Positions 4,900-64,000 of a stretch of 64,000 nt of DNA are shown here, piece by piece. The position numbers and the translations under genes are program-made. Origin of the DNA: a virus. The first letter of the stretch is position 1. Each line of letters starts with the position of its first letter. Location of the stretch: positions 69,534 through 133,533 of the IMG/VR virus record IMGVR_UViG_3300034200_001185; one strand, given 5' to 3'. A model generated the notes under the pieces. It did not search any database, was not told the DNA's origin, and was given only the letters and a program-made list of their open reading frames with translations.

Positions 4900-4933
4900 C
4901 ATATAGTTATCACACTTTTTAGCGAAGAATTGA
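4900..4933 (-). promoter_or_regulatory. phage promoter motif site 1 (TCAA-N16-GTGATAA-CTA-TATG)
   Basis: Near-consensus copy (TATG rather than YATA) of the recurring motif, about 32 nt upstream of ATG 4868. Confidence 0.55.
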
Positions 4934-4940
4934 GGGAAGT

Positions 4941-7900
4941 ATGATGCAAGCGCAAGGTAATTTTAATTACGGTTGGGGCAATAATCCGAATAATCCTACA
5001 ATGTCTGCGGACTTTTTAGGTGCAAATCCATACGGACCTAGCTTAGGGTATTCCGCTGGTTTAAGCGGACTTGGTGCAGCACACAATATATTTAACACGG
5101 TTAATACTGCCGGTATGTTTGCCGGTATGGCTTCAGGATTCGGCATAGGTGGATCGGGTTTAGCTAATTTCGGTAGAATAGCAGGCGGGCTTGGTTTCGG
5201 TGGCATGGTTATGCCGATGCTAGCGCCTATGGCAGTAGGTCACGCATTTGGCGCTGCTGTTCACGGCGCCCAGCAACAAAATGCCATACATAATATTATG
5301 AATCAATCGTTTGGCAACCGAAATATGGGTGGGTATGGCGGTTCTGGTTTTAGCGGACAGTCGGCTCAAATGATGACGGAAACAATTCGTAGTATGGCAG
5401 CGATACCTGACATGCTTACAAATCAAAACGAGCTTACTAACATATTTCGTAATCTTAATAGTATGAAGCTTCTACAAGCGTCTAAGAACGCTAAAGAGAT
5501 GGGCGATAAATTTAGTACGATTGTTAAAACAATGAAAGATATGGCAAGAGAACTTAATACAACGCTTGAAAACGTAATGCCTTATATCGAACAGTTTAAT
5601 AACCAAGGGTACTTTCATATGAAAGACATTCGTAGAGGATCTTCTATGACTCGTGCTACAAGCGCTGTCGGTATTGGTATGAATGAACAAAATTTAATCG
5701 GATTACAACAAAGCGGTGCAGATTTAGTTCGTGGGTATGGCGGTAGAAGTATGGTAGGATCCGAGCTTATGCGAGATATGGCTGGTCAAGTAAGCATAGG
5801 CGTTCAGAAGGGGTTAATATCAGAAGAACGTTTATTTAACGTAACAGGTAAACGCGGAGAAGAGGCAGTAGGCGAGATGTCTAAAAAGATGATGGCAGCA
5901 AACGCTCGTATTATGCAATCGGATGCAGGTAAAATATTATCCGCAGCGTTGGGAAAGAAGAATGAAAACGGAGAGTTTACAGGCGAGATTGATAAGGACC
6001 TACTCGAAAAGTTTAATAGTGGCGCACTATCATCGGAAGACATAAAATCTCTATACTCGTCTAAACTCGACAGTAGCCAAGCAGCAGTATCGTTACAAAA
6101 TAATATGTCTAGAGGTATGGGCGCAGAGTTTGGTGCGAAGATGGGCGTAGGTGGTTTAGCAAAAGCAGCGAAAGCATTACTTAAAGATTCAAACTTAAGC
6201 GATGAAGAAATTAAACTCTGGTTAAAGAATACGATACAAGAAGATCAAATCGTAGTAGATGCGATATTTGAAATGTCGGATAAATCGAAAGGGCTTGAAC
6301 GAGAATTCGAGAGGCAAGTAGGCGAGGTACAAAAGAAGAATCGAATGATGTCTGCGCTTAGAGAACGTAGTCTCGGAGCCAAGTATCAGAAGTTTAAAAC
6401 TAGCGTAGGTCATATTATATCATCTCCATTTGAAAGTATGGGCGGTGACTACATGACACAATTTTCGGAAGCTGGAGAATTAGCTAGCCACGACTTTGCA
6501 AACGGTAGATACCTTAAAGCTACGGGGCGTATGATAGGCGGTTTCTTTGGTATTCAGCCAACTCACGTACGTGGTAAGCTAGAAGGTATTAGCGATGAAG
6601 TTGTAGCAAGCGCAATGATGGGCGATACGGGAAGAACAACTACAAATAACTTTTCAGAAGCAACGGATGAAGGTGTTAATAAGTTTTTAAACACATCACG
6701 CTTTGCGCAAAACTTAGATATAATTGGTGGTATAAAAGATACATTCGATGAAACGGAAATGAGAGATTATAACGCACGTAAATTTTTCGGAACTGATAGA
6801 AAAAACATAACAGCGGATTATTTAGCAAAGAGAGAAGGTCAGAAGAGTACGACAAAATCTACTCGATTTATAAGAGATTATATTTCGAAGGCTTTGAGTA
6901 GTGGTAAGACGGTATCTGAAATCATTCGCGGACTGAAGGAGAATATGACTCACGGTGGAGGCGATATATACGGACAATTACAAGCGCTTGAATCAGAAGG
7001 TGGCGGGCTTGGTAAGTTAGCAGGAGAAGTTAGACAAGGAATTAACTCGCAAATCACCAGCGGTATGGGAAGCGCTACATCGGAGGAGAGAATAGTCGAA
7101 CTTACAAAACAAAGAAATAGTATGTTTGGTTCTAACTACGGCGTAGGTTTTGGCGGAGCGGAAGGCGAAGATATTATAGATCAAGGCGCTTTTGGTGGTG
7201 TAAACGATCTTGACAGTAATGTTCTACAAGAGATATTTAGATCCGGTAGTCAAGTGAGTATTCAAAAGCAGCAAGGATACGCACAACTTATGAATGCGCT
7301 TAGCAGCGACGATAAAATGGATATAGCGTCAGCTTTACGTAGTGGTGACGATAAAGAAATACAAAGAGTATTAGATTCGAAGGGCATAAAGCTTAGCGCT
7401 AGTGATCTTCAAGGCGCAACAAGAGATGAGTTTTTAAAGCTAGCTGGCGAGGTTTATAACTTAGACGCTGTGGGAAAGCACGGATATCAACAGTACATGA
7501 GCAAGCTTACGGGAAATCTTAGTGAACAGGCTTTACATGAAAAGGGTACGGCTAGAACGGATCTATTTAAATATACAATGGATAAAGATTTCGGTAGTAC
7601 AGAATACGGTAAGATGTTAAGTGAATACGCAAGTAAAGGCGATATATCTAAACTTGATGCGCTTACTGGATCGCTTACGGAAGATAAACTTAAAGGTATG
7701 GAAGAGTCATCCGGCAAAGACTTAATGGTTAAACTATTTGCAGAAAAGCAGCGTATAGCCGGTTTGTCGGATGATGAAGTTACGAACGAGGCTAAAGCGT
7801 ACTTGAGCGATGATCAGATTAAAGAATTAGGCATGTCTAAACTAAGAACTCGTATGACTAATAGAGTCGTACTTCAAGCCGGCAAAGCGTCTAGCGATAA

Positions 7901-29774: not shown

Positions 29775-29796
29775 TGTTATATTGTACAATATAACA
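29775..29796. promoter_or_regulatory. perfect 22-bp palindrome in a divergent intergenic region
   Basis: TGTTATATTGTACAATATAACA, checked base by base. Confidence 0.7.
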
Positions 29797-29808
29797 TAGG
29801 AGCTTATA

Positions 29809-31593
29809 ATGACAAATCCAATTAACGTAGTACCCAAAACAGACAACGACGGATCAAGATTAGGGCGTGAAACACGCAGATGGGCGGAAGGGCATATCAT
29901 CGATATTAAATCGAGCGTGCTTAGGTTACTAAATAAGGCGCTTGCACCAAGTGACACAACAAACGCAATTTACGTTCTGAACAATCAGTTGTATTTTGGA
30001 AACTCTGTTATCAGCGGTGTATCCGAAGAATACATACAGAGTCTTATCGATGATGCGCTTGCTACTATCGATTTCGTAGATCAAGCCGAAGCTGAGCAGA
30101 TTGCGACTACAATCGCAACAAACATCGTAAACACTGCGATTAATAACTTATCTATTCCATCCAATCTATCCGACCTAAACGATGTAAATGCTTCGGGCAT
30201 ACAAACTGGTGATGTGGTTACTTGGAACGGAACTCAATTTGTAATGCAAGCGCCTAATGATGTTGTGAATAATACGCTTTTGCTATCTGACGGCAGTAAT
30301 AACGATACTTTAGACTTAGCAAACTCAGACGTACTTACTATACAAGGTACAAGTAACGAGGTAACCGTACAATTATCTACAAGCGTTGGTGGACAAGCAT
30401 ATACCATTTCGTTACCAGAAAGCATAAATGCGAAGTCATCGTCATCTCTGCAAGCTGATAAGCTTACAACGGCTAGAACATTATCATTATCTACTGACGC
30501 ATCTGGATCAGTGTCGTTTGACGGATCAGCTGATGTGTCTTTGTCCGTAGGTAGTGTAAAAGCAACACAATTAAAGACAGCAAGAACAATCACGCTTAGC
30601 GGTAATTGCAGTGGAAGTATTTCGTTTGACGGCACCACAGATGTTACAATACCAACAACCGTTAGTTTATCTACCCAAGCCAATACGCTATCTACAGCTC
30701 GTACAATTACAATATCCGGTGATGCAGTAAATCAAGGTGCAGCGCCTAGCTTTAATGGCAGTGCAAATGTTAATATTCCGATCACCGTAAGTAAGGCGGA
30801 TCAATTAAGAACAGCGCGAAAGATAACATTATCAGGAGACGCAGTCGGTGCTGTTAATTTTAACGGATCCGCTGACGTAATTTTATCGGCAACGGTTACA
30901 AACTCGTCTACTGCAAATCAATTAGCGACAACAAAAACTATCTCGCTAACAGGGCCCGTAACAGGTAGTGTAAATACAACCTTTTCGACAAATCCTTCGA
31001 TTGCTACAACAGTACCAGCAAACGCTTTCAAGACAATTCTAACAACCAAGGTAACTACCTTGTTATATCGAGTTAAAGATCCTAGTAGCCCATATTTGCC
31101 TGCGTCTACTAATGTATTTGATACATCCTTATCTGCGTTACTAGCCGAACCTGTAGCGGTATTCTATACACAAACAGGTAGTTTTAGCTCAGGGCATAGA
31201 ATTGTAGGCGCTTACTTGTATTTCCAAGATGGTGGTGTGCCGGGCGTAAGTTCAAATGGCGTATCACGAGCTATTTACGAAGATTATCGATTCACTTTAA
31301 AGTCAGGTACGATTGCGTCATCTGGCAAGATTACTTGGGTCAGCACGGTAGCTACTGGTTATATGTTACGCAGTATTCCTACAGCAGATGTATATGATGG
31401 CGATAGAACAGACGTATCAGCCGCACTGACACCGCCAACAGGTTCTACAACTATAAATAGCGGGTCAGCACTTGGGTTATTCTTTGATAAGATCACAATT
31501 AACCGCGCCGGATTTGACGCAATAAACAACTTAAATCCATGCGCATACGGATGTACAATCAACGTAGTACTCGAAAACCTACCACTAGTTTAA
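29809..31593 (+). CDS. tail fibre protein with ~5 tandem 'LxTARTITLSGD..GS.SFDGSADV' repeats
   Basis: Repeats visible in the translation, about residues 220-400; AGGAG RBS. Confidence 0.8.
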   Translation: MTNPINVVPKTDNDGSRLGRETRRWAEGHIIDIKSSVLRLLNKALAPSDTTNAIYVLNNQLYFGNSVISGVSEEYIQSLIDDALATIDFVDQAEAEQIATTIATNIVNTAINNLSIPSNLSDLNDVNASGIQTGDVVTWNGTQFVMQAPNDVVNNTLLLSDGSNNDTLDLANSDVLTIQGTSNEVTVQLSTSVGGQAYTISLPESINAKSSSSLQADKLTTARTLSLSTDASGSVSFDGSADVSLSVGSVKATQLKTARTITLSGNCSGSISFDGTTDVTIPTTVSLSTQANTLSTARTITISGDAVNQGAAPSFNGSANVNIPITVSKADQLRTARKITLSGDAVGAVNFNGSADVILSATVTNSSTANQLATTKTISLTGPVTGSVNTTFSTNPSIATTVPANAFKTILTTKVTTLLYRVKDPSSPYLPASTNVFDTSLSALLAEPVAVFYTQTGSFSSGHRIVGAYLYFQDGGVPGVSSNGVSRAIYEDYRFTLKSGTIASSGKITWVSTVATGYMLRSIPTADVYDGDRTDVSAALTPPTGSTTINSGSALGLFFDKITINRAGFDAINNLNPCAYGCTINVVLENLPLV

Positions 31594-55306: not shown

Positions 55307-55323
55307 TCCTACTTATTGTATAA
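55291..55323 (+). promoter_or_regulatory. candidate plus-strand promoter: TTGACT-N17-TATTGT, with TATTGTATAA box
   Basis: Sigma70-like spacing upstream of ATG 55348; TATTGTAYAA also occurs at 29780-29789. Confidence 0.4.
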
Positions 55324-55347
55324 GTTACGTATTACAAGGAGCTTATT

Positions 55348-56208
55348 ATGAAGATTTTAAACCGATACCCCGTAGATACTCCGCAACAAGTTAAGCATGC
55401 TTCGGACTACTTTGACGAATACTACAACGACTTTACCGTGTCCGATCGAGTTAATTTTGCACAAGGCTTAGTTAAGGCAGCGGAGTTTCACGGTGTTGAA
55501 GTTACAGATCGTGTTGAGGAATACACAGGCGTACCAAGAGAAGATATTACCGTTGGTATTCACATGCGAAATTATTTAACTGGCGGATATGCGTCAGATG
55601 CATTAAACGGTATTCAAAAGATTGCGTCAGTTGTGGATCCGCATGAGATTGTTTTATTACTCGAAGAATTTGATAAACAAAACCAACTCGAACGTCATTA
55701 CCACCGTATGCCTGATCCGTATCAAACTGTATTTGTAAAAACCGCAGAAACACTTAGAGACGAAGTATGGCGTGGCCCAACCGACTCATTACGCCAAGAT
55801 AAATTCGAAGTATGGGTTAGATCTCCTAAGAGTAAATCTATATTACAAGAAACATTTACACCCGACTTAGCGATTGAAATTATTCGCAATCCTTGGGAAA
55901 TATTTATGTCTTTACCCGATCCACATAAACAAATGATCGCAAGACTTGTGAATGATAACGTAATTGACAATCTCAATAACTCCGGTAGAAGTTTATATGA
56001 TTACGATGGCGCGCTTACAAGCGAACAACTTGACGAATCTCCAGAACAACAACTTAGAAGATTACATACACGTCATTACTCCGGCGGTCCTTCATCTATG
56101 ACAGGCGTTATGGAAGGTGGTGGCGTACAAGGCGATCCTATGAATCGTATTGCAGCAAGCGTATTACACGGCATCAAGGATAAACAAGATAGAATGCGTA
56201 GGACATAA
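55348..56208 (+). CDS. probable head/internal virion protein
   Basis: 286 aa; repeated K-x-A motifs (VKHAS, VKAAE, QKIAS, VKTAE); head of the portal operon; AAGGAG RBS. Confidence 0.55.
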   Translation: MKILNRYPVDTPQQVKHASDYFDEYYNDFTVSDRVNFAQGLVKAAEFHGVEVTDRVEEYTGVPREDITVGIHMRNYLTGGYASDALNGIQKIASVVDPHEIVLLLEEFDKQNQLERHYHRMPDPYQTVFVKTAETLRDEVWRGPTDSLRQDKFEVWVRSPKSKSILQETFTPDLAIEIIRNPWEIFMSLPDPHKQMIARLVNDNVIDNLNNSGRSLYDYDGALTSEQLDESPEQQLRRLHTRHYSGGPSSMTGVMEGGGVQGDPMNRIAASVLHGIKDKQDRMRRT

Positions 56209-57693: not shown

Positions 57694-59757
57694 ATGAGTA
57701 GACCACCAGGCTATGGAGGTAGGGGTACGATTATGCACGCCGCTGCGGGAGCAGAAGGTCGTGCAACAACCGCACCTAAATACCCACACCCATTCTTTGA
57801 TCAGGGGCAAGCGTACCTACCTACATCGTACAAGAACATGTTTCATTGGTGTAGGTACTACTTCTTAACAAACCCAGCTGTAAACTCGTCTGTTTCTAAA
57901 ATGGCCGAGTACCCAATTACTCCGATTGTATTTAAAACGGAGAATCAAGCATTACGTACTAAATACGAAGAGATTACAAAGATATTAAACCTTAAATCAT
58001 TTCGTATTGAAGTCGGACTAGATTATTATACTTATGGAAATTGCTACGTAAGTATTATATTCCCATTTCGTAAATTCTTAATATGCCGTAATTGTAAACA
58101 TCATCACGATATTAAAGACGTGAAGACTACTAAGTACCGTTGGGTATCTATGCAGTACCAACTCGAATGCGCTAAATGCGGACATCACGGATTCTGTGAC
58201 GTAAAGGATCAAAGCATTAAATCGCTAAAAGGTATACGTTTAGTTAGATGGGATCCCGAAAGAGTTGACGTAAAGTACGATGATTTTACAGGCATAAGTG
58301 AATATTTCTACGATATTCCGCAAGAGACATCCAATGAAATACGTATGGGCAAACGAAGATACTTAGAAGATATGCCCGATGTATTTGTAAAGTCGGTACA
58401 AAGGGCAAGACGCTTAGTACTAAGTCAAGACAACTTGTACCACTTTCGTAGACCAACACTCGCTCAAAAGAGTATGGGCTACGGAACACCGCTTGTTCTT
58501 CCCGTTCTTAAAGATTTACATTACCTCGGTATTCTACGTAGATCACAAGAATCAATTGCGCAAGAACATATTGTGCCAATGCGTATTATCTTTCCTAGTT
58601 CTAACAGTCCTAACGCTGATCCTTATTCTATGCTTAATTTGATGGAATGGAAGAACGAGGTGGAGAAACAAATATCGCAATGGAAGATCGATCCTAATCG
58701 TATTCCAATCATGCCATTACCTCTCGGCGTACAACAAATCGGCGGTGAGGGTAGAGCGCTTATTCTTCACCAAGAGTATCGCGTTTGGATGGAACATATT
58801 ATTGCGGGTATGGGCGTACCACCAGAGTTTGTATTTGGGGGCGTTCAGTACAGCGGTACAAATCTTACTATGTTCCAACTTCATAATAAGTTCTTATCGT
58901 ATATCGACGATCAGAGAGAGCTTGTATTCGATTTCATTCTAAATAGAGTTGCGTCTTATATGAATTACCCAACCATTGACGGTGACTTTAGACCGTTTAA
59001 GATGGCGGATGATTTACAACGTACCATGCTCTACTTCCAACTCGTACAAGGTCAAAAGCTTGCAGATCGTACTTTACTTGAAGATCTCGGATTTGATCCG
59101 GCTCTTGAACGTAGAAAGATGGACGAAGAGCGTGGCGAGATGCTTGAATTACAACGAAGAATGCAGATACAACAAGCGCATATTCAAGGCGATGTTATGG
59201 CTGTTAACGCTAAGTACCAAGCAGAATCACAACGTTCTCAAGTACAAGGTCAATTCGAAGTTCAAAAGCTACAAGCGCAATTACAAGAACAAATGCAGCA
59301 AGAGCAGACAGCGAAAGAGCAAGCTAAACAAGCGCCACAGATTACCGGGTCACTTGCGTCCAACGGTGCATTACCAGACGGCGCAATGACAGGTGATCAA
59401 GTAGCGCCTGGTTTCCCACAAGGAGCGACAGCGTACTCTAGAAACGGAAGTTCTACACCTCAAACCGGTATTCCACCTTGGTTTGGCGTAGAGAGAACTG
59501 GGGCTAATAAAAACGGTGCACAGATGGATATCTCGTATGTCGCAAAGAGAGCAGCCGCATATATACGCGGTTTACCTTCAGATAGACAAAACGAAGTATT
59601 AAATACTATGTCCGTTTCAAATCCACAGTTGCATCAAATGGTTTTAAACATGCTTGATTCGAGATCTGGTGCTCAGACCAATCCTGTAAATCCGGCACAA
59701 ATGCCTATGCCTCAGATGCGTCCGCCAAGACGAGATGCTCGCTTGATCAGCCAATAG
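57694..59757 (+). CDS. portal protein with a Zn-ribbon insertion and a long Q/P-rich C-terminus
   Basis: CRYYFLTNPAVNSSVSKMAEYPIT; LYHFRRP...GYGTPLVLPVLKDLHYLGILRRSQESIAQEHIVP; portal-like architecture. Confidence 0.75.
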   Translation: MSRPPGYGGRGTIMHAAAGAEGRATTAPKYPHPFFDQGQAYLPTSYKNMFHWCRYYFLTNPAVNSSVSKMAEYPITPIVFKTENQALRTKYEEITKILNLKSFRIEVGLDYYTYGNCYVSIIFPFRKFLICRNCKHHHDIKDVKTTKYRWVSMQYQLECAKCGHHGFCDVKDQSIKSLKGIRLVRWDPERVDVKYDDFTGISEYFYDIPQETSNEIRMGKRRYLEDMPDVFVKSVQRARRLVLSQDNLYHFRRPTLAQKSMGYGTPLVLPVLKDLHYLGILRRSQESIAQEHIVPMRIIFPSSNSPNADPYSMLNLMEWKNEVEKQISQWKIDPNRIPIMPLPLGVQQIGGEGRALILHQEYRVWMEHIIAGMGVPPEFVFGGVQYSGTNLTMFQLHNKFLSYIDDQRELVFDFILNRVASYMNYPTIDGDFRPFKMADDLQRTMLYFQLVQGQKLADRTLLEDLGFDPALERRKMDEERGEMLELQRRMQIQQAHIQGDVMAVNAKYQAESQRSQVQGQFEVQKLQAQLQEQMQQEQTAKEQAKQAPQITGSLASNGALPDGAMTGDQVAPGFPQGATAYSRNGSSTPQTGIPPWFGVERTGANKNGAQMDISYVAKRAAAYIRGLPSDRQNEVLNTMSVSNPQLHQMVLNMLDSRSGAQTNPVNPAQMPMPQMRPPRRDARLISQ

Positions 59758-60205: not shown

Positions 60206-60234
60206 AAGCGTAAGTATCCTTACGCTTATTTTTT
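60206..60234 (+). terminator. intrinsic terminator-like hairpin
   Basis: AAGCGTAAG-TATC-CTTACGCTT, a 9-bp perfect stem followed by ATTTTTT on the + strand; could stop read-through from the portal operon. Confidence 0.55.
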
Positions 60235-60711
60235 GTTAGATATTTCTTCGTCTATTTTCATTACCCAAGTGTCGATTATATCTGACTCAACGAAACCGTC
60301 ATTAGCACAGATTGGACACAAGTAGTAATCATACTTTGTAGTGTCTTCGGTAAATCTTATGTCAAGTTCTTCAGCGTTTCCTTCAACATCACCGCTTATT
60401 AACCGAAGGCAATAAGGTATCGAGCTGTTTGGCGCAATAGATTCGAGGCAAATCGAGCACCGAAGAGGCTCTTTTTGTATTTCGATCTTTCTGTTCTTAA
60501 GCAATAGCTCGAAACAGAAATCGTGTATGTACATATTACCTTCCGTGCAGTCGAATATGGCGTGTCCGCCGGGCTTGTGGATGATAGTTTTTCCGAGTTC
60601 AACGGAGTAAACATCTTCTCCGGCTTCTATTCCATCCATACAGGATTCGCAGTATGTTGCAAATACTACTAATTCTTCGTCTTCTGAATCGTTTGGCTTT
60701 TTAGGACTCAT
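60226..60711 (-). CDS. double zinc-finger (LIM/treble-clef-like) protein, paralog B
   Basis: CESC...HDFC...CSIC...CPIC; start MSPKK with GAAAGGA RBS. Confidence 0.75.
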   Translation of the reverse strand: MSPKKPNDSEDEELVVFATYCESCMDGIEAGEDVYSVELGKTIIHKPGGHAIFDCTEGNMYIHDFCFELLLKNRKIEIQKEPLRCSICLESIAPNSSIPYCLRLISGDVEGNAEELDIRFTEDTTKYDYYLCPICANDGFVESDIIDTWVMKIDEEISNKK

Positions 60712-60997
60712 GTTGTTTCCTTTCAACGAGTGCTCTTGCTACTGATTGTCTTTTACACGCATCACAATTACCGCTTGAATGAAACGGCAGTATCTCATAC
60801 TCATCTCGATTATGATCAACACATGCAATACATAACCATTTCGCGTCATCTACGTATTCGTATAAGTGCTTGCAATCGCTACATTTAATTACGCTACAAA
60901 ACTTTTGTGGGTGTACACTACAATACTCGTTTGGCTTTTGCTCACCTGTGTTAACTTCTGTGTTTACGTTGAAGTGCTTTGCGTCTGTCCGCTTCAT
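60701..60997 (-). CDS. Cys-rich hypothetical protein
   Basis: 98 aa; CSDC, CIAC, CDAC. Confidence 0.65.
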   Translation of the reverse strand: MKRTDAKHFNVNTEVNTGEQKPNEYCSVHPQKFCSVIKCSDCKHLYEYVDDAKWLCIACVDHNRDEYEILPFHSSGNCDACKRQSVARALVERKQHES

Positions 60998-61106
60998 TGC
61001 TTTGAATCTCCGCTTTCTTAGCTTCGCTATTTAATTCCCAAGTCAGCCAACCTACGAATCCGAGTATTGCTGACCATAAGAATAGTTTTTTTTGACGACT
61101 GTCCAT
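60951..61106 (-). CDS. small single-pass membrane protein (51 aa, not in ORF track)
   Basis: MDSRQKKLFLWSAILGFVGWLTWELNSEAKK...RKHRS*, translated by hand; GAAAGGA RBS; motif promoter upstream. Confidence 0.65.
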   Translation of the reverse strand: MDSRQKKLFLWSAILGFVGWLTWELNSEAKKAEIQSNEADRRKALQRKHRS

Positions 61107-61128: not shown

Positions 61129-61161
61129 TATGTATTTATCACACTTTATTTTTAAAATTGC
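61129..61161 (-). promoter_or_regulatory. phage promoter motif site 4 (GCAA-N15-GTGATAA-ATA-CATA)
   Basis: 23 nt upstream of ATG 61106. Confidence 0.65.
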
Positions 61162-61182
61162 GCACCCCATAGAATTTAAGCT

Positions 61183-61271
61183 AAAAAAACCTTACGGAGA
61201 AGGATGGAAGAAATTCGGCTATTGGGGTTTTAGAACCACCGGTCGCCGAATTTCTTCCATCCTTCCCCATA
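61183..61271 (-). terminator. long inverted repeat followed by a U7 tract (terminator-like) on the minus strand
   Basis: Perfect 21-bp arms 61199-61219 / 61245-61265, extending with two mismatches to 61193/61271; A7 at 61183-61189. Confidence 0.6.
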
Positions 61272-61307
61272 GTCGTAGTCGGGGTCGTTTGTGTATATAT
61301 ACCGCAT
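61230..61307 (-). CDS. 25-aa aromatic-rich peptide (MRYIYTNDPDYDYGEGWKKFGDRWF)
   Basis: Perfect AGGAGG (61315-61320) 7 nt upstream of ATG; lies in the unit between promoter site 5 and the hairpin. Confidence 0.5.
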   Translation of the reverse strand: MRYIYTNDPDYDYGEGWKKFGDRWF

Positions 61308-61382
61308 GGCATATCCTCCTACACATCAAGTAACCTTACCGAAGAGAAAAGTAAGGTTGGTTTGAGTTAGTTGTTTCTCTTC

Positions 61383-61416
61383 TATATTCTTATCACGCAA
61401 TTTGTGGTAGACTTGC
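61383..61416 (-). promoter_or_regulatory. phage promoter motif site 5 (GCAA-N16-GTGATAA-GAA-TATA)
   Basis: Full consensus; back-to-back with the RNAP beta start. Confidence 0.65.
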
Positions 61417-61437
61417 TATCAGCCGAAAGGGGACTGT

Positions 61438-64000
61438 ATGTTAGAGAAGTTCGATTTTAATAAAACGCAAAATGAGTTGCGAATGAAGGTAGTACAGATT
61501 ATTACCGATTTACTTAATAACCTAGAAAGCTCGCATAGAATACTAAAGATTGAATCGATTAGTTTTTCGCAGAGTAGCGTAGGCCCAACAGACTTTGCCA
61601 AGCAAAGAGACTTACGAGACAAGGGCGGTAGCTTAGAAGAAAAGATTACGGCTAAGTTGACGCTTATTGATAAAGCGACAGGTAAGGTAATTGCGACTCA
61701 ATCGAATACACAAATAGGACACATACCCGTTCTTACATCTCGTTTGTCTTACTTAGTACAAGGACGAGAATATTCTATTCCATCCCAATTCAGACGTTTA
61801 TCAGGTGTGTATACAAAAATAGCGGATAATGGTGAAATACAAGCAATCGCAGCAAACGATAGACGTGGGCAAATACCATTACGATTTGATCCTGATAAGC
61901 GTATTATTTACATACAACCAAAACTTGGATCATCATCAGAAATAGATTTATATACTTTATTACACGGTGCTGGAAAAACAGACGATCAAATTGCGCAAGT
62001 TTGGGGTAAGGGATTAGTCGAGTCGGCTAAATCGCAAACTAACGCAGCAAGAATGCAACGTAATTTAATTTCTAAGGCGCAAATGATTGTCGGTAAGGAC
62101 GTTAAGATTCCAGACGATAAAACAGCCGCTCAGTTGATATTCCAAGAACTTGCAAACCACACACTTGATCCACGTATTACAATGGACGTTTTAGGTAAGG
62201 CGCATACTACACTTACTCCAGATGCATTACTAGATACCGGTAAAGTGCTCGTACAAGTCGCTAAAAGAGAGATACCAGAATCGTCTTATAACAATTTGGG
62301 TTATAAGCGATTTTTAGATTTACCAGACATTCTCGAAGACTACTTACAAAGAAAGAAACGAGATATACAACAGAAGGTTAAAAATCGTATGACTAAGGAC
62401 AGAACAAATCCAGCAGATGTTCTTAGCGGTGTACTTGATCAATACATTCGAGGTTTCTTTCGTAAGGGTGGCGAAACACAGTTAAGCTCCGAAGGTAATC
62501 AAACAAATCCAATTGCGTTCTTATCAGACTTTACATCTACAACCGTACTTGGTATGGGCGGTATTAGCACAGGACCGGGTATGCAGCTTGGAAGCGCCGT
62601 ACAAGTACACTCGTCTCACCTATCATTCCTTGATCCGATTGACACAGGCGAAGGCGAGAATATAGGTTTAGCCTTGCAACAAACAATCGGTACACAAAAG
62701 AAGGGCGATCAAATTGCGAGTACTCTTTACAATATGAAAACCGGTAAAGTAGAACTCGTAGATCCTTTAACCGCAGATAAATCGATTGTAGCATTCGCAG
62801 ATGACATTAAGTTTCAAAACGGAAAACCTTATGCGCTTAAACCAAAAGTAAGCGTTAGACGTGGAGACGGTAAAGTAGATTTAGTAGCACTTAAAGACGT
62901 TCAGTATATCATGCTTAATTCTAAGCAAATGTTCGGCGTAGCTACAAATACAATTCCGTTCTTAAATAACAACAACGGTAATCGTAATATGATGGGTGCG
63001 AAGATGGCTACTCAAGCCATTCCGCTATCAAATCGAGAAGAACCGCTTGTTCAAATTAAACTTGAGAAATCAGGCGATACAGTCGAAAAGGCTCTCGGAG
63101 ATATATCAAGCCTTTTAGCAAAGGTAGACGGTAAGGTAATTAAAGTAAGCGAAACAGAAATCGTTGTACAAAGTGGTACATCAAAAGTATCACACGAGAT
63201 GTATAACAACTTTCAAACAAATGCAGTAGGCGGTATTATGCACCACGAGCCTGTGGTAGCAGTAGGCGATATGGTTAAGAAGGGTCAGCTACTCGCAGAC
63301 TCTAACTTTACAAAGAACGGTACTCATGCGATGGGATCCAATCTTCGTGTAGGTTATATGCCATATCGAGGACTAAATTACGAAGACGGCGTTGTTATCT
63401 CTCGTTCCGCAGCAAATAAGCTAACAAGTCATCACTTGTATATTATGGAGAGAGATACAACCGTTCCGCTTGGTACTAAATTAGACGCACGTGGTATGAA
63501 AGACCTAGACGAAAATTCTATTGTAGTTAGTAAGACTCTATTCGAATCTTGGGCACCACAATCAGCACGTATTAATCAAAGCGGACTTACTCTACTTGAT
63601 GATGATGGCGTTGCAAAGGTCGGATCTAAAATACAATCCGGCGACATATTAATCGCAGCAGTTAAGAAAGCAGCATACGATCCAACACTTAAAGTGCTTA
63701 CCAAGAATACTACCTTCGGTGCAGAGTGGAAACCCGCAGAAGTTCGTTGGGAAAAGGATCCACCAGGTACCGTTGTTCGCGTTGTAAAGCACGGTAAGAA
63801 AATAAGCGTAATGGTACGAACAGAAGAGCCTATGACAATCGGCGACAAGCTAGTTGGTAGGTATGGTAATAAAGGTATTATTACTCGTATCTTGGAAGAT
63901 AACGAAATGCCATTTTATACCGATAAGAAGGGCGAACGTCAACATCTTGAAGTTGCGTTACATCCTATTGGGTTTATTGGTCGTACTAATCCCGGACAAC
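61438..64000 (+). CDS. rpoB: phage-encoded multisubunit DNA-directed RNA polymerase beta subunit (partial, runs off the window)
   Basis: Segments translated by hand, all in frame +1: GHIPVLT...LVQGREYSIPSQFRRLSGVY; VHSSHLSFLDPIDTGEGENIGL; IPFLNNNNGNRNMMGAKMATQAIPL; GSNLRVGYMPYRGLNYEDGVVIS; GDKLVGRYGNKGIITRI...HPIGFIGRTNPGQ. Confidence 0.95.
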   Translation, partial: MLEKFDFNKTQNELRMKVVQIITDLLNNLESSHRILKIESISFSQSSVGPTDFAKQRDLRDKGGSLEEKITAKLTLIDKATGKVIATQSNTQIGHIPVLTSRLSYLVQGREYSIPSQFRRLSGVYTKIADNGEIQAIAANDRRGQIPLRFDPDKRIIYIQPKLGSSSEIDLYTLLHGAGKTDDQIAQVWGKGLVESAKSQTNAARMQRNLISKAQMIVGKDVKIPDDKTAAQLIFQELANHTLDPRITMDVLGKAHTTLTPDALLDTGKVLVQVAKREIPESSYNNLGYKRFLDLPDILEDYLQRKKRDIQQKVKNRMTKDRTNPADVLSGVLDQYIRGFFRKGGETQLSSEGNQTNPIAFLSDFTSTTVLGMGGISTGPGMQLGSAVQVHSSHLSFLDPIDTGEGENIGLALQQTIGTQKKGDQIASTLYNMKTGKVELVDPLTADKSIVAFADDIKFQNGKPYALKPKVSVRRGDGKVDLVALKDVQYIMLNSKQMFGVATNTIPFLNNNNGNRNMMGAKMATQAIPLSNREEPLVQIKLEKSGDTVEKALGDISSLLAKVDGKVIKVSETEIVVQSGTSKVSHEMYNNFQTNAVGGIMHHEPVVAVGDMVKKGQLLADSNFTKNGTHAMGSNLRVGYMPYRGLNYEDGVVISRSAANKLTSHHLYIMERDTTVPLGTKLDARGMKDLDENSIVVSKTLFESWAPQSARINQSGLTLLDDDGVAKVGSKIQSGDILIAAVKKAAYDPTLKVLTKNTTFGAEWKPAEVRWEKDPPGTVVRVVKHGKKISVMVRTEEPMTIGDKLVGRYGNKGIITRILEDNEMPFYTDKKGERQHLEVALHPIGFIGRTNPGQ

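Follow-up and report, generated by a model that had tools for sequence, protein, structure and literature searches.

Very small proteins are known among the early products of bacteriophages, for example the 26-residue Stp peptide of T4 and the early host-takeover proteins of T7. The locus described here resembles their genes in having a tiny early ORF with a strong Shine-Dalgarno (SD) sequence of its own, which is overlooked by gene callers, and by analogy its product would presumably be a trans-acting host-takeover factor. In contrast to these proteins, to which it has, as far as we are aware, no sequence similarity, it is encoded by a single ORF with its own promoter and terminator, and coding sequence lies within the terminator stem.

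Further likenesses concern the RNA. Stem-loops of the ompA type at the mRNA 5' end protect the message from the 5'-end-dependent decay initiated by RNase E. Similarly, the transcript studied here has a helix that starts about 1-2 nt from its predicted 5' end, and such helices are recurrent in the early leaders of this phage. However, the helix of the mini-gene competes with an equally stable local hairpin, and this competition is kept in the relative L096. Since a constitutive stabiliser needs no competing hairpin, the mini-gene leader differs from the ompA type. At the 3' end, the stem, the 3-nt spacer and the U7 tract are those of intrinsic terminators, whereas the 27-bp stem with a 25-nt loop is about twice the size of the 14-bp stems of the other early terminators in this genome, and it holds nine codons.

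In ribosome-mediated attenuators, such as pyrBI and the trp and phe leaders, the leader ORF runs into the terminator. Here, too, a short ORF for a peptide rich in aromatic codons overlaps the 5' arm of a Rho-independent terminator, and the first-pass annotation had accordingly pointed to attenuators. This overlap stands. The rest of the comparison fails, because a restart promoter at 61142-61129 intervenes 3' of the terminator, with an equivalent in all relatives that have the terminator, and because no antiterminator was found; moreover, the peptide is under purifying selection in relatives and is conserved past any regulatory codons. Type I toxin-antitoxin systems of the hok/sok kind combine a small hydrophobic membrane-active toxin, a fold-back mRNA and an antisense RNA. 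What our locus has in common with them is the extensively structured mRNA for a small peptide, with a possible long-range pairing; in contrast, its fold-back is not conserved and no antisense promoter of either phage type was found, and the comparison fails on hydropathy, since the peptide is hydrophilic.

Thus characterized, the unit is built of ordinary parts, namely a small early gene, a 5' stem and an intrinsic terminator. Together they form an early micropeptide gene that is conserved but had not been annotated before, with a bistable leader and a terminator embedded in coding sequence. With it, a little-known clade of uncultured phages with a fused RNA polymerase of the cellular type gains a conserved family of micropeptides that had escaped annotation.

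Genomic setting and the early promoter class

The window, that is, the whole stretch of DNA analyzed here, is the final 64 kb of a linear 133.5-kb contig of an uncultured virus from IMG/VR, for which a completeness of 72% is estimated. Divergently from the mini-gene, a gene for a fused beta-beta' RNA polymerase (RNAP) starts at 61438 on the plus strand and continues to the last position, 64000; this portion contains Pfam Rpb2 domains, and the 3' part of the gene lies beyond the contig end. Full-length homologues, of about 2,100 aa, combine beta and beta' domains in one polypeptide, hence the RNAP of this phage is a fused one of the cellular type. Metagenomes contain more than 50 homologues of similar length, some of them inside bacterial MAGs. 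The nearest matches from cultured phages (Salmonella phage Arash and Vibrio phage D69) have only about 30% identity, and blastn of the mini-gene region against cultured phages gave no match. The locus is therefore without an annotated or transcript-mapped relative.

Relatives are here the fetched loci that encode homologues of this RNAP, and their identity is given over its N-terminal 450 residues. At 41-78% identity, they have a mini-unit opposite the RNAP gene and before a small membrane-protein gene, with a common order of elements: the promoter word, a short leader, an SD sequence, a tiny ORF, one or more hairpins, a T-run with a tail word, and the next promoter. A small SD-led ORF directly after the promoter that diverges from the RNAP gene is found in L096, which is the closest relative (78%), in L009/L112/L100/L098/L099, L010, L011/L113/L114, L091/L102/L103, L105, L093, L106, L107 and L109. 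Four loci (L094, L095, L023 and L111) are without the mini-gene, and the membrane-protein gene directly follows the promoter there. In 64 more distant fused-RNAP loci no small ORF matching the two-part peptide motif occurs at this place, the pattern being an imperfect one that the peptides of this phage and of the L009 clade fail as well; most of these loci are also without the promoter word.

The mini-gene is preceded by the early promoter word (GTGATAA, 2 nt, ATATA) at 61383-61396 on the minus strand, the strand to which all coordinates below refer unless noted otherwise. Its transcription is predicted to start at about 61384-61382. The word is supported by strand bias, enrichment in the window, repeated occurrence and conservation. 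GTGATAA has 28 minus-strand and four plus-strand copies in the genome, mostly just 5' of SD-led genes, and the longer form is found seven times in the window, always on the minus strand, against 1.55 expected; examples of GTGATAA-NN-ATATA are at 61396, 61142, 55284, 43283 and 4913. An identical promoter with the same first transcribed bases occurs at five other early genes, and the word is kept at the corresponding site in all near relatives. The mini-gene promoter is a member of this repeated class of early promoters, which is the phage's own. As GTGATAA-NN-ATATA is kept in relatives spanning low to high GC content, its conservation points to a recognition factor encoded by the phage and not by the host.

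The repeated early cassette of this phage runs from a hairpin through a T-run and a short tail word to the next promoter word, which comes at a fixed spacing, and the mini-unit sits between two such promoter/terminator signals. On its 3' side, the promoter word at 61129-61142 serves as the restart promoter of a 51-codon membrane-protein gene (61106-60951); in all near relatives with a terminator at this place, the word follows the mini-unit within about 45 nt. The definition of the clade's early promoter word and of the terminator-promoter cassette aids annotation of these genomes. The cassette also occurs upstream of the window, at 47-58 kb of the contig (L003-L007), with a 14-bp hairpin and with the T-run and tail word in its 3' arm; the next promoter word comes exactly 53 nt further on in at least five copies. 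In one of these loci (L005:1568-1646, minus strand), promoter and tail word are only about 50 nt apart; this second very short interval, which has a possible ORF of 11 codons and closely precedes another early promoter, folds no better than its shuffles (z -0.5). A scan with the exact promoter word had a sole match, L008, which lies inside an unrelated coding region and was discarded.

A sigma-70/terminator scanner flagged neither the mini-gene promoter nor its terminator. The promoter was missed because its spacing is not sigma-70-like, and the terminator because its loop is beyond the 8-nt limit of the scanner. The first-pass annotation had described a discrete, self-contained unit with its own promoter, ribosome-binding site, peptide ORF and terminator, followed by a restart promoter, and this description is upheld: all the features that it listed were located on the minus strand at the positions it gave, and as a set they are beyond chance. 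Its judgment that the element is an undescribed one also agrees with our searches. Pfam and PHROGs gave nothing, and Rfam, at a permissive E-value, returned only sub-threshold matches to generic long hairpins of the miRNA type. A single-protein scan of viral contigs and a scan of genome contigs found nothing.

The early operon downstream (60951-61106, 60701-60997 and 60226-60726) is syntenic in all relatives and belongs to no Pfam or PHROG family. It encodes a single-pass membrane protein of 51-66 aa with a charged tail, followed by cysteine-rich zinc-ribbon-like proteins.

The two-state leader

The leader contains four segments. At the 5' end of the transcript is the purine-rich segment a (61374-61382), all 9 nt of which are complementary to segment a' (61341-61349), a pyrimidine-rich, anti-SD-like stretch that forms the loop of a local hairpin. 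The arms of this hairpin are segments b (61351-61358, 5' arm) and b' (61332-61339, 3' arm), exact 8-mer complements of each other. The a-a' duplex, in which the loop pairs with the 5' end, has an energy of -11.6 kcal/mol, and its shuffle p-value is 0.007 here and 0.009 in L096. The 8-mer complementarities of leader and tail taken together were matched by seven of 2000 dinucleotide shuffles, and by two of 2000 when the direct repeat was added.

The connectors between b and a' and between a' and b' are 1 nt each and identical in this phage and in L096, so that the a-a' helix of 8-9 bp and the b-b' helix of 8 bp would be mutually exclusive on steric grounds. The ensemble energies of the two states are -24.7 and -24.7 kcal/mol in this phage and -26.2 and -27.2 kcal/mol in L096. 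L096 repeats the layout of the leader base for base: segment a at the second transcribed base, a 13-15-nt spacer, b, U, a', G and b'. In a register-anchored table of pairs, four pairs of b-b' are changed on both sides to other Watson-Crick pairs in L096 and a fifth is changed to G.U, while in a-a' one A-U pair is replaced by G-C. Because a near-length protein search for closer RNAP fragments found none closer than L096, the leader covariation rests on this one relative. The first-pass annotation had proposed that these pairings exclude each other and had named covariation as the check. The proposal was supported: the connectors should leave room for one helix at a time, the two states are isoenergetic, and both pairings are conserved with compensatory changes in L096. 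Thus two exclusive folds of similar energy, both conserved in the one informative relative, make the leader a bistable RNA switch, and a clean natural case of a two-state 5' leader with compensatory evolution.

The sole consistent difference between the two states is at the very 5' end, where the first six bases are unpaired to 0.17 in one state and to 0.94-0.98 in the other. Accessibility of the SD sequence changes in opposite directions in this phage and in L096. The 5'-end helix begins at the second base past the predicted start, and 5'-terminal pairing is significant in four of the seven other early leaders of this phage, one of them unrelated in sequence (p 0.001); the b-b' competitor in these leaders is only about 3 bp. 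Given this recurrence, a-a' is probably the standard 5'-terminal protective stem, or stabiliser, of the phage, and the strong b-b' hairpin may be a competitor particular to this gene, by which the 5' end is exposed.

The micropeptide ORF and its terminator

An SD sequence, AGGAGG (61315-61320), lies 7 nt before the ATG at 61307, which opens an ORF of 25 codons and a stop (61230-61307) for a hydrophilic, acidic and aromatic micropeptide with four Y, two W and two F residues. SD and start are at a functional distance, and the syntenic ORF stays open: an SD-led ORF of 9-41 codons is present in 19 of 19 near relatives with the unit. Among five L009-clade sequences pN/pS is 0.09-0.34, which indicates purifying selection, and the peptides of this clade have two protein-invariant blocks with many third-position changes. 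Between this phage and L096, the codons of N-D-P and F-G-D-x-W are kept, with synonymous differences only, and BLASTP of the peptide against the 41-aa peptide of L096 gave an E-value of 2e-4. In L011 and L113, 11 of 13 peptide residues are common, whereas the leaders and terminators cannot be aligned.

The family alignment has the motif D-P-x-aromatic, two acidic residues, an aromatic residue and G-x-P. When profiles built with one clade left out were run against 613 control small ORFs, the L009 clade, L105, L093, L113 and L107 ranked first and L096 third; the peptide of this phage ranked 12th of 615, at 1.5 bits, and appears to be a weak family member, tied to the others via L096 and synteny. 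Its GRAVY is -1.45 and its longest apolar run is two residues; the GRAVY of all 15 family peptides is between -0.6 and -1.8, and their aromatic content is 8-38%. Between clades, the ORF varies from 9 to 41 codons and the net charge flips; such variable length and charge are unusual for a peptide with a fixed target. Putative resemblances to the FtsZ C-terminal peptide, the SSB tail, the Trp-cage and TnaC are leads only. Its motifs were not found elsewhere in this genome. Gene callers skipped the ORF on a near-identical contig.

The hairpin at the 3' end of the unit (61193-61271) has a 27-bp stem formed by 61271-61245 with 61219-61193 and including two G.U pairs. Its 5' arm covers codons 13-21, and its 25-nt loop consists of the last four codons and the stop. 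The hairpin part folds with -54.8 kcal/mol (z -9.7) and the whole 214-nt RNA with -81.7 kcal/mol (z -7.4). The stem is followed, within 61177-61192, by a 3-nt spacer, U7 (61189-61183) and a tail word, a T-run and then AGCT, which is kept in relatives and in the cassettes of the genome. Stem, spacer and U7 make it a canonical intrinsic terminator; accordingly, the U-tract is on the transcribed strand only, and there is no plus-strand T-run after the hairpin. The 21-bp perfect hairpin with its 5' arm in the ORF, noticed at first pass, is indeed present (arms 61265-61245 and 61219-61199), and it is the inner part of this longer terminator stem.

The second copy of the b' 8-mer, also noticed earlier, is present at 61188-61195, positions that it shares with the stem base of the terminator, the spacer and the first U residues. 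As the stem extends to 27 bp, this copy is partly terminator stem, spacer and U-tract. Taken alone it is not significant (170 of 2000 shuffles reach it), and it has no counterpart in L096 or in the other relatives; it is probably incidental. The fold-back of the 5' end on the 3' end that had been built on it could not be sustained, being absent in L096 and in every other relative; a pseudoknot with this distal 8-mer is not conserved either.

Both L010 and the L009 clade have a terminator stem that takes in the 3' half of the ORF and stops at the same aligned F-G codons; across five close sequences, five pairs of this hairpin are changed on both sides. Two hairpins are present in L096, L011, L113 and L105, one over the ORF end or its stop codon and another that serves as the terminator. 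A helix-enclosed ORF end is thus a recurrent feature of the family. Its conceivable roles are stability of the 3' end, termination that responds to translation and, as in L107, coupling to the gene behind it. In two relatives at 41% identity the ORF runs into the start codon of the membrane-protein gene: in L107 (1301-1369, minus strand) there is neither terminator nor promoter between them, and the hairpin at the ORF end overlaps the SD sequence of the membrane-protein gene; in L109 (186-281, minus strand) the overlap was judged by eye. This is an ordinary first-cistron layout, and it suggests that translational coupling is the ancestral state.

Proposed function and competing explanations

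From the sequence and its conservation, we consider it probable that the region is a complete one-gene early transcription unit whose short, stable mRNA encodes a hydrophilic acidic/aromatic peptide of 25 residues. In this unit the a-a' helix would shield the mRNA 5' end as the standard protective stem does elsewhere in the phage, and the strengthened b-b' competitor would expose it, so that the leader would toggle between a protected and a decay-prone state. By analogy with 5'-end-dependent decay by RNase E, this toggle would set the lifetime of the mRNA. The location of codons 13-21 inside the terminator stem would tie translation to folding of the 3' end, and during takeover the peptide would act in trans, on a protein of the host or of the phage.

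The most viable of the other explanations, though we hold it to be unlikely, is that the ORF acts in cis as a leader peptide. A ribosome on codons 13-25, perhaps slowed at the aromatic codons or by the nascent peptide, would open the 5' arm, the terminator would fail, and transcription would read through into the membrane-protein and zinc-ribbon genes; with no ribosome there, the 27-bp stem would form and transcription would stop. This agrees with the 5' arm inside the ORF and the stop codon in the loop, with the presence in most clades of a hairpin over the ORF end or stop even where it is not the terminator (L096, L011, L113 and L105), with the enrichment of aromatic residues (8-38%), and with the L107 ORF being translationally coupled to the next gene. 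However, a full promoter follows within about 45 nt of the terminator in every relative that has one, hence the downstream genes need no read-through. Folds of 14 units showed no antiterminator pairing with the terminator arms, the switchable helices being located in the 5' leader, and purifying selection acts also on residues other than the aromatic codons.

Another group of explanations starts from the position of the unit. The RNAP gene starts back-to-back with the mini-gene, 41 nt from its promoter, so that the RNAP promoter either overlaps the mini-gene promoter or sits inside the unit. The reverse complement of the promoter word is found 34-48 nt upstream of the RNAP start in the window and in 14 of the 16 relatives checked, two of the four relatives without the mini-gene among them. 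In view of this overlap and of its conservation in almost every relative, the mini-gene might be a dedicated regulator of the fused beta-beta' RNAP, its peptide, as a small acidic/aromatic ligand, or its bistable, very stable RNA setting the timing or activity of the polymerase, a role that we regard as quite improbable. The peptide could, for example, be a minimal anti-sigma-like or polymerase-binding factor, and in a related scenario the terminator would sense translation or the nascent peptide. Should the polymerase gene prove to be a target of the peptide or the RNA, the unit would offer a compact handle on the timing of phage transcription.

Regulation of the RNAP gene at the level of RNA or promoter, with the peptide secondary, seems to us just as doubtful. 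Such regulation could come about by occlusion of the RNAP promoter through the strong early one, or by pairing of the abundant structured mini-RNA with an RNAP 5' UTR that would overlap it. The conserved back-to-back spacing, seen also in relatives without the peptide gene, and the high stability of the mini-RNA are consistent with such regulation, as is the like arrangement of the plus-strand gene at window position 4941, which starts 34 nt from a minus-strand promoter word. On the other hand, no plus-strand promoter word of either phage class was found upstream of the RNAP gene in 17 loci. The relatives without the mini-gene retain the divergent promoter, and thus the arrangement is independent of the mini-RNA. 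Finally, selection at the level of the peptide would be left unexplained.

As a separate observation, at both 4907-4941 and 61390-61438 of the window a plus-strand gene starts 34-48 nt past the reverse complement of the early promoter word, that is, past a minus-strand promoter. This spacing leaves no room for an independent promoter, and the promoters at the two sites may be overlapping or bidirectional.

The type I toxin-antitoxin design of hok/sok, to which the first-pass annotation had likened the unit, is very improbable. In that design, the mRNA of a toxic peptide would be silenced by its fold-back and by an antisense RNA, and the peptide mRNA is indeed short and highly structured; in principle, its 8-mer b could also find a partner in the second 8-mer copy near the 3' end. 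However, this distal copy is neither conserved nor significant on its own; all the peptides are strongly hydrophilic and without a membrane segment, that of this phage (GRAVY -1.45) having no apolar run above two. A plus-strand antisense RNA, which the first-pass annotation had proposed to look for, likewise found no support, as no plus-strand promoter word of either phage type is present in the region in 17 loci, and a 67-codon plus-strand ORF across the hairpin is conserved in no relative.

A DNA-level element (a cruciform or an origin), or a chance remnant between two repeated cassettes, has next to no probability: the long perfect palindrome in a divergent intergenic region, the capacity of repeated cassettes to recombine, and the other promoter-to-tail interval of about 50 nt without a significant fold might speak for it, but the T-run is on one side only, as in an RNA terminator, the arms differ among relatives with the pairing retained, and the SD-led ORF and the peptide motif are conserved.

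Two minor observations concern transcription of the plus strand. A TATTGTAYAA box, absent upstream of the RNAP gene, is located 19-24 nt before a common SD-plus-ATG context at two structural operons (29775-29809 and 55314-55348, plus strand) and is a candidate late promoter. At 60206-60227, between two minus-strand ORFs, there is a terminator-like hairpin with a plus-strand T-run, which may stop plus-strand transcription from the gene at 57694-59757.
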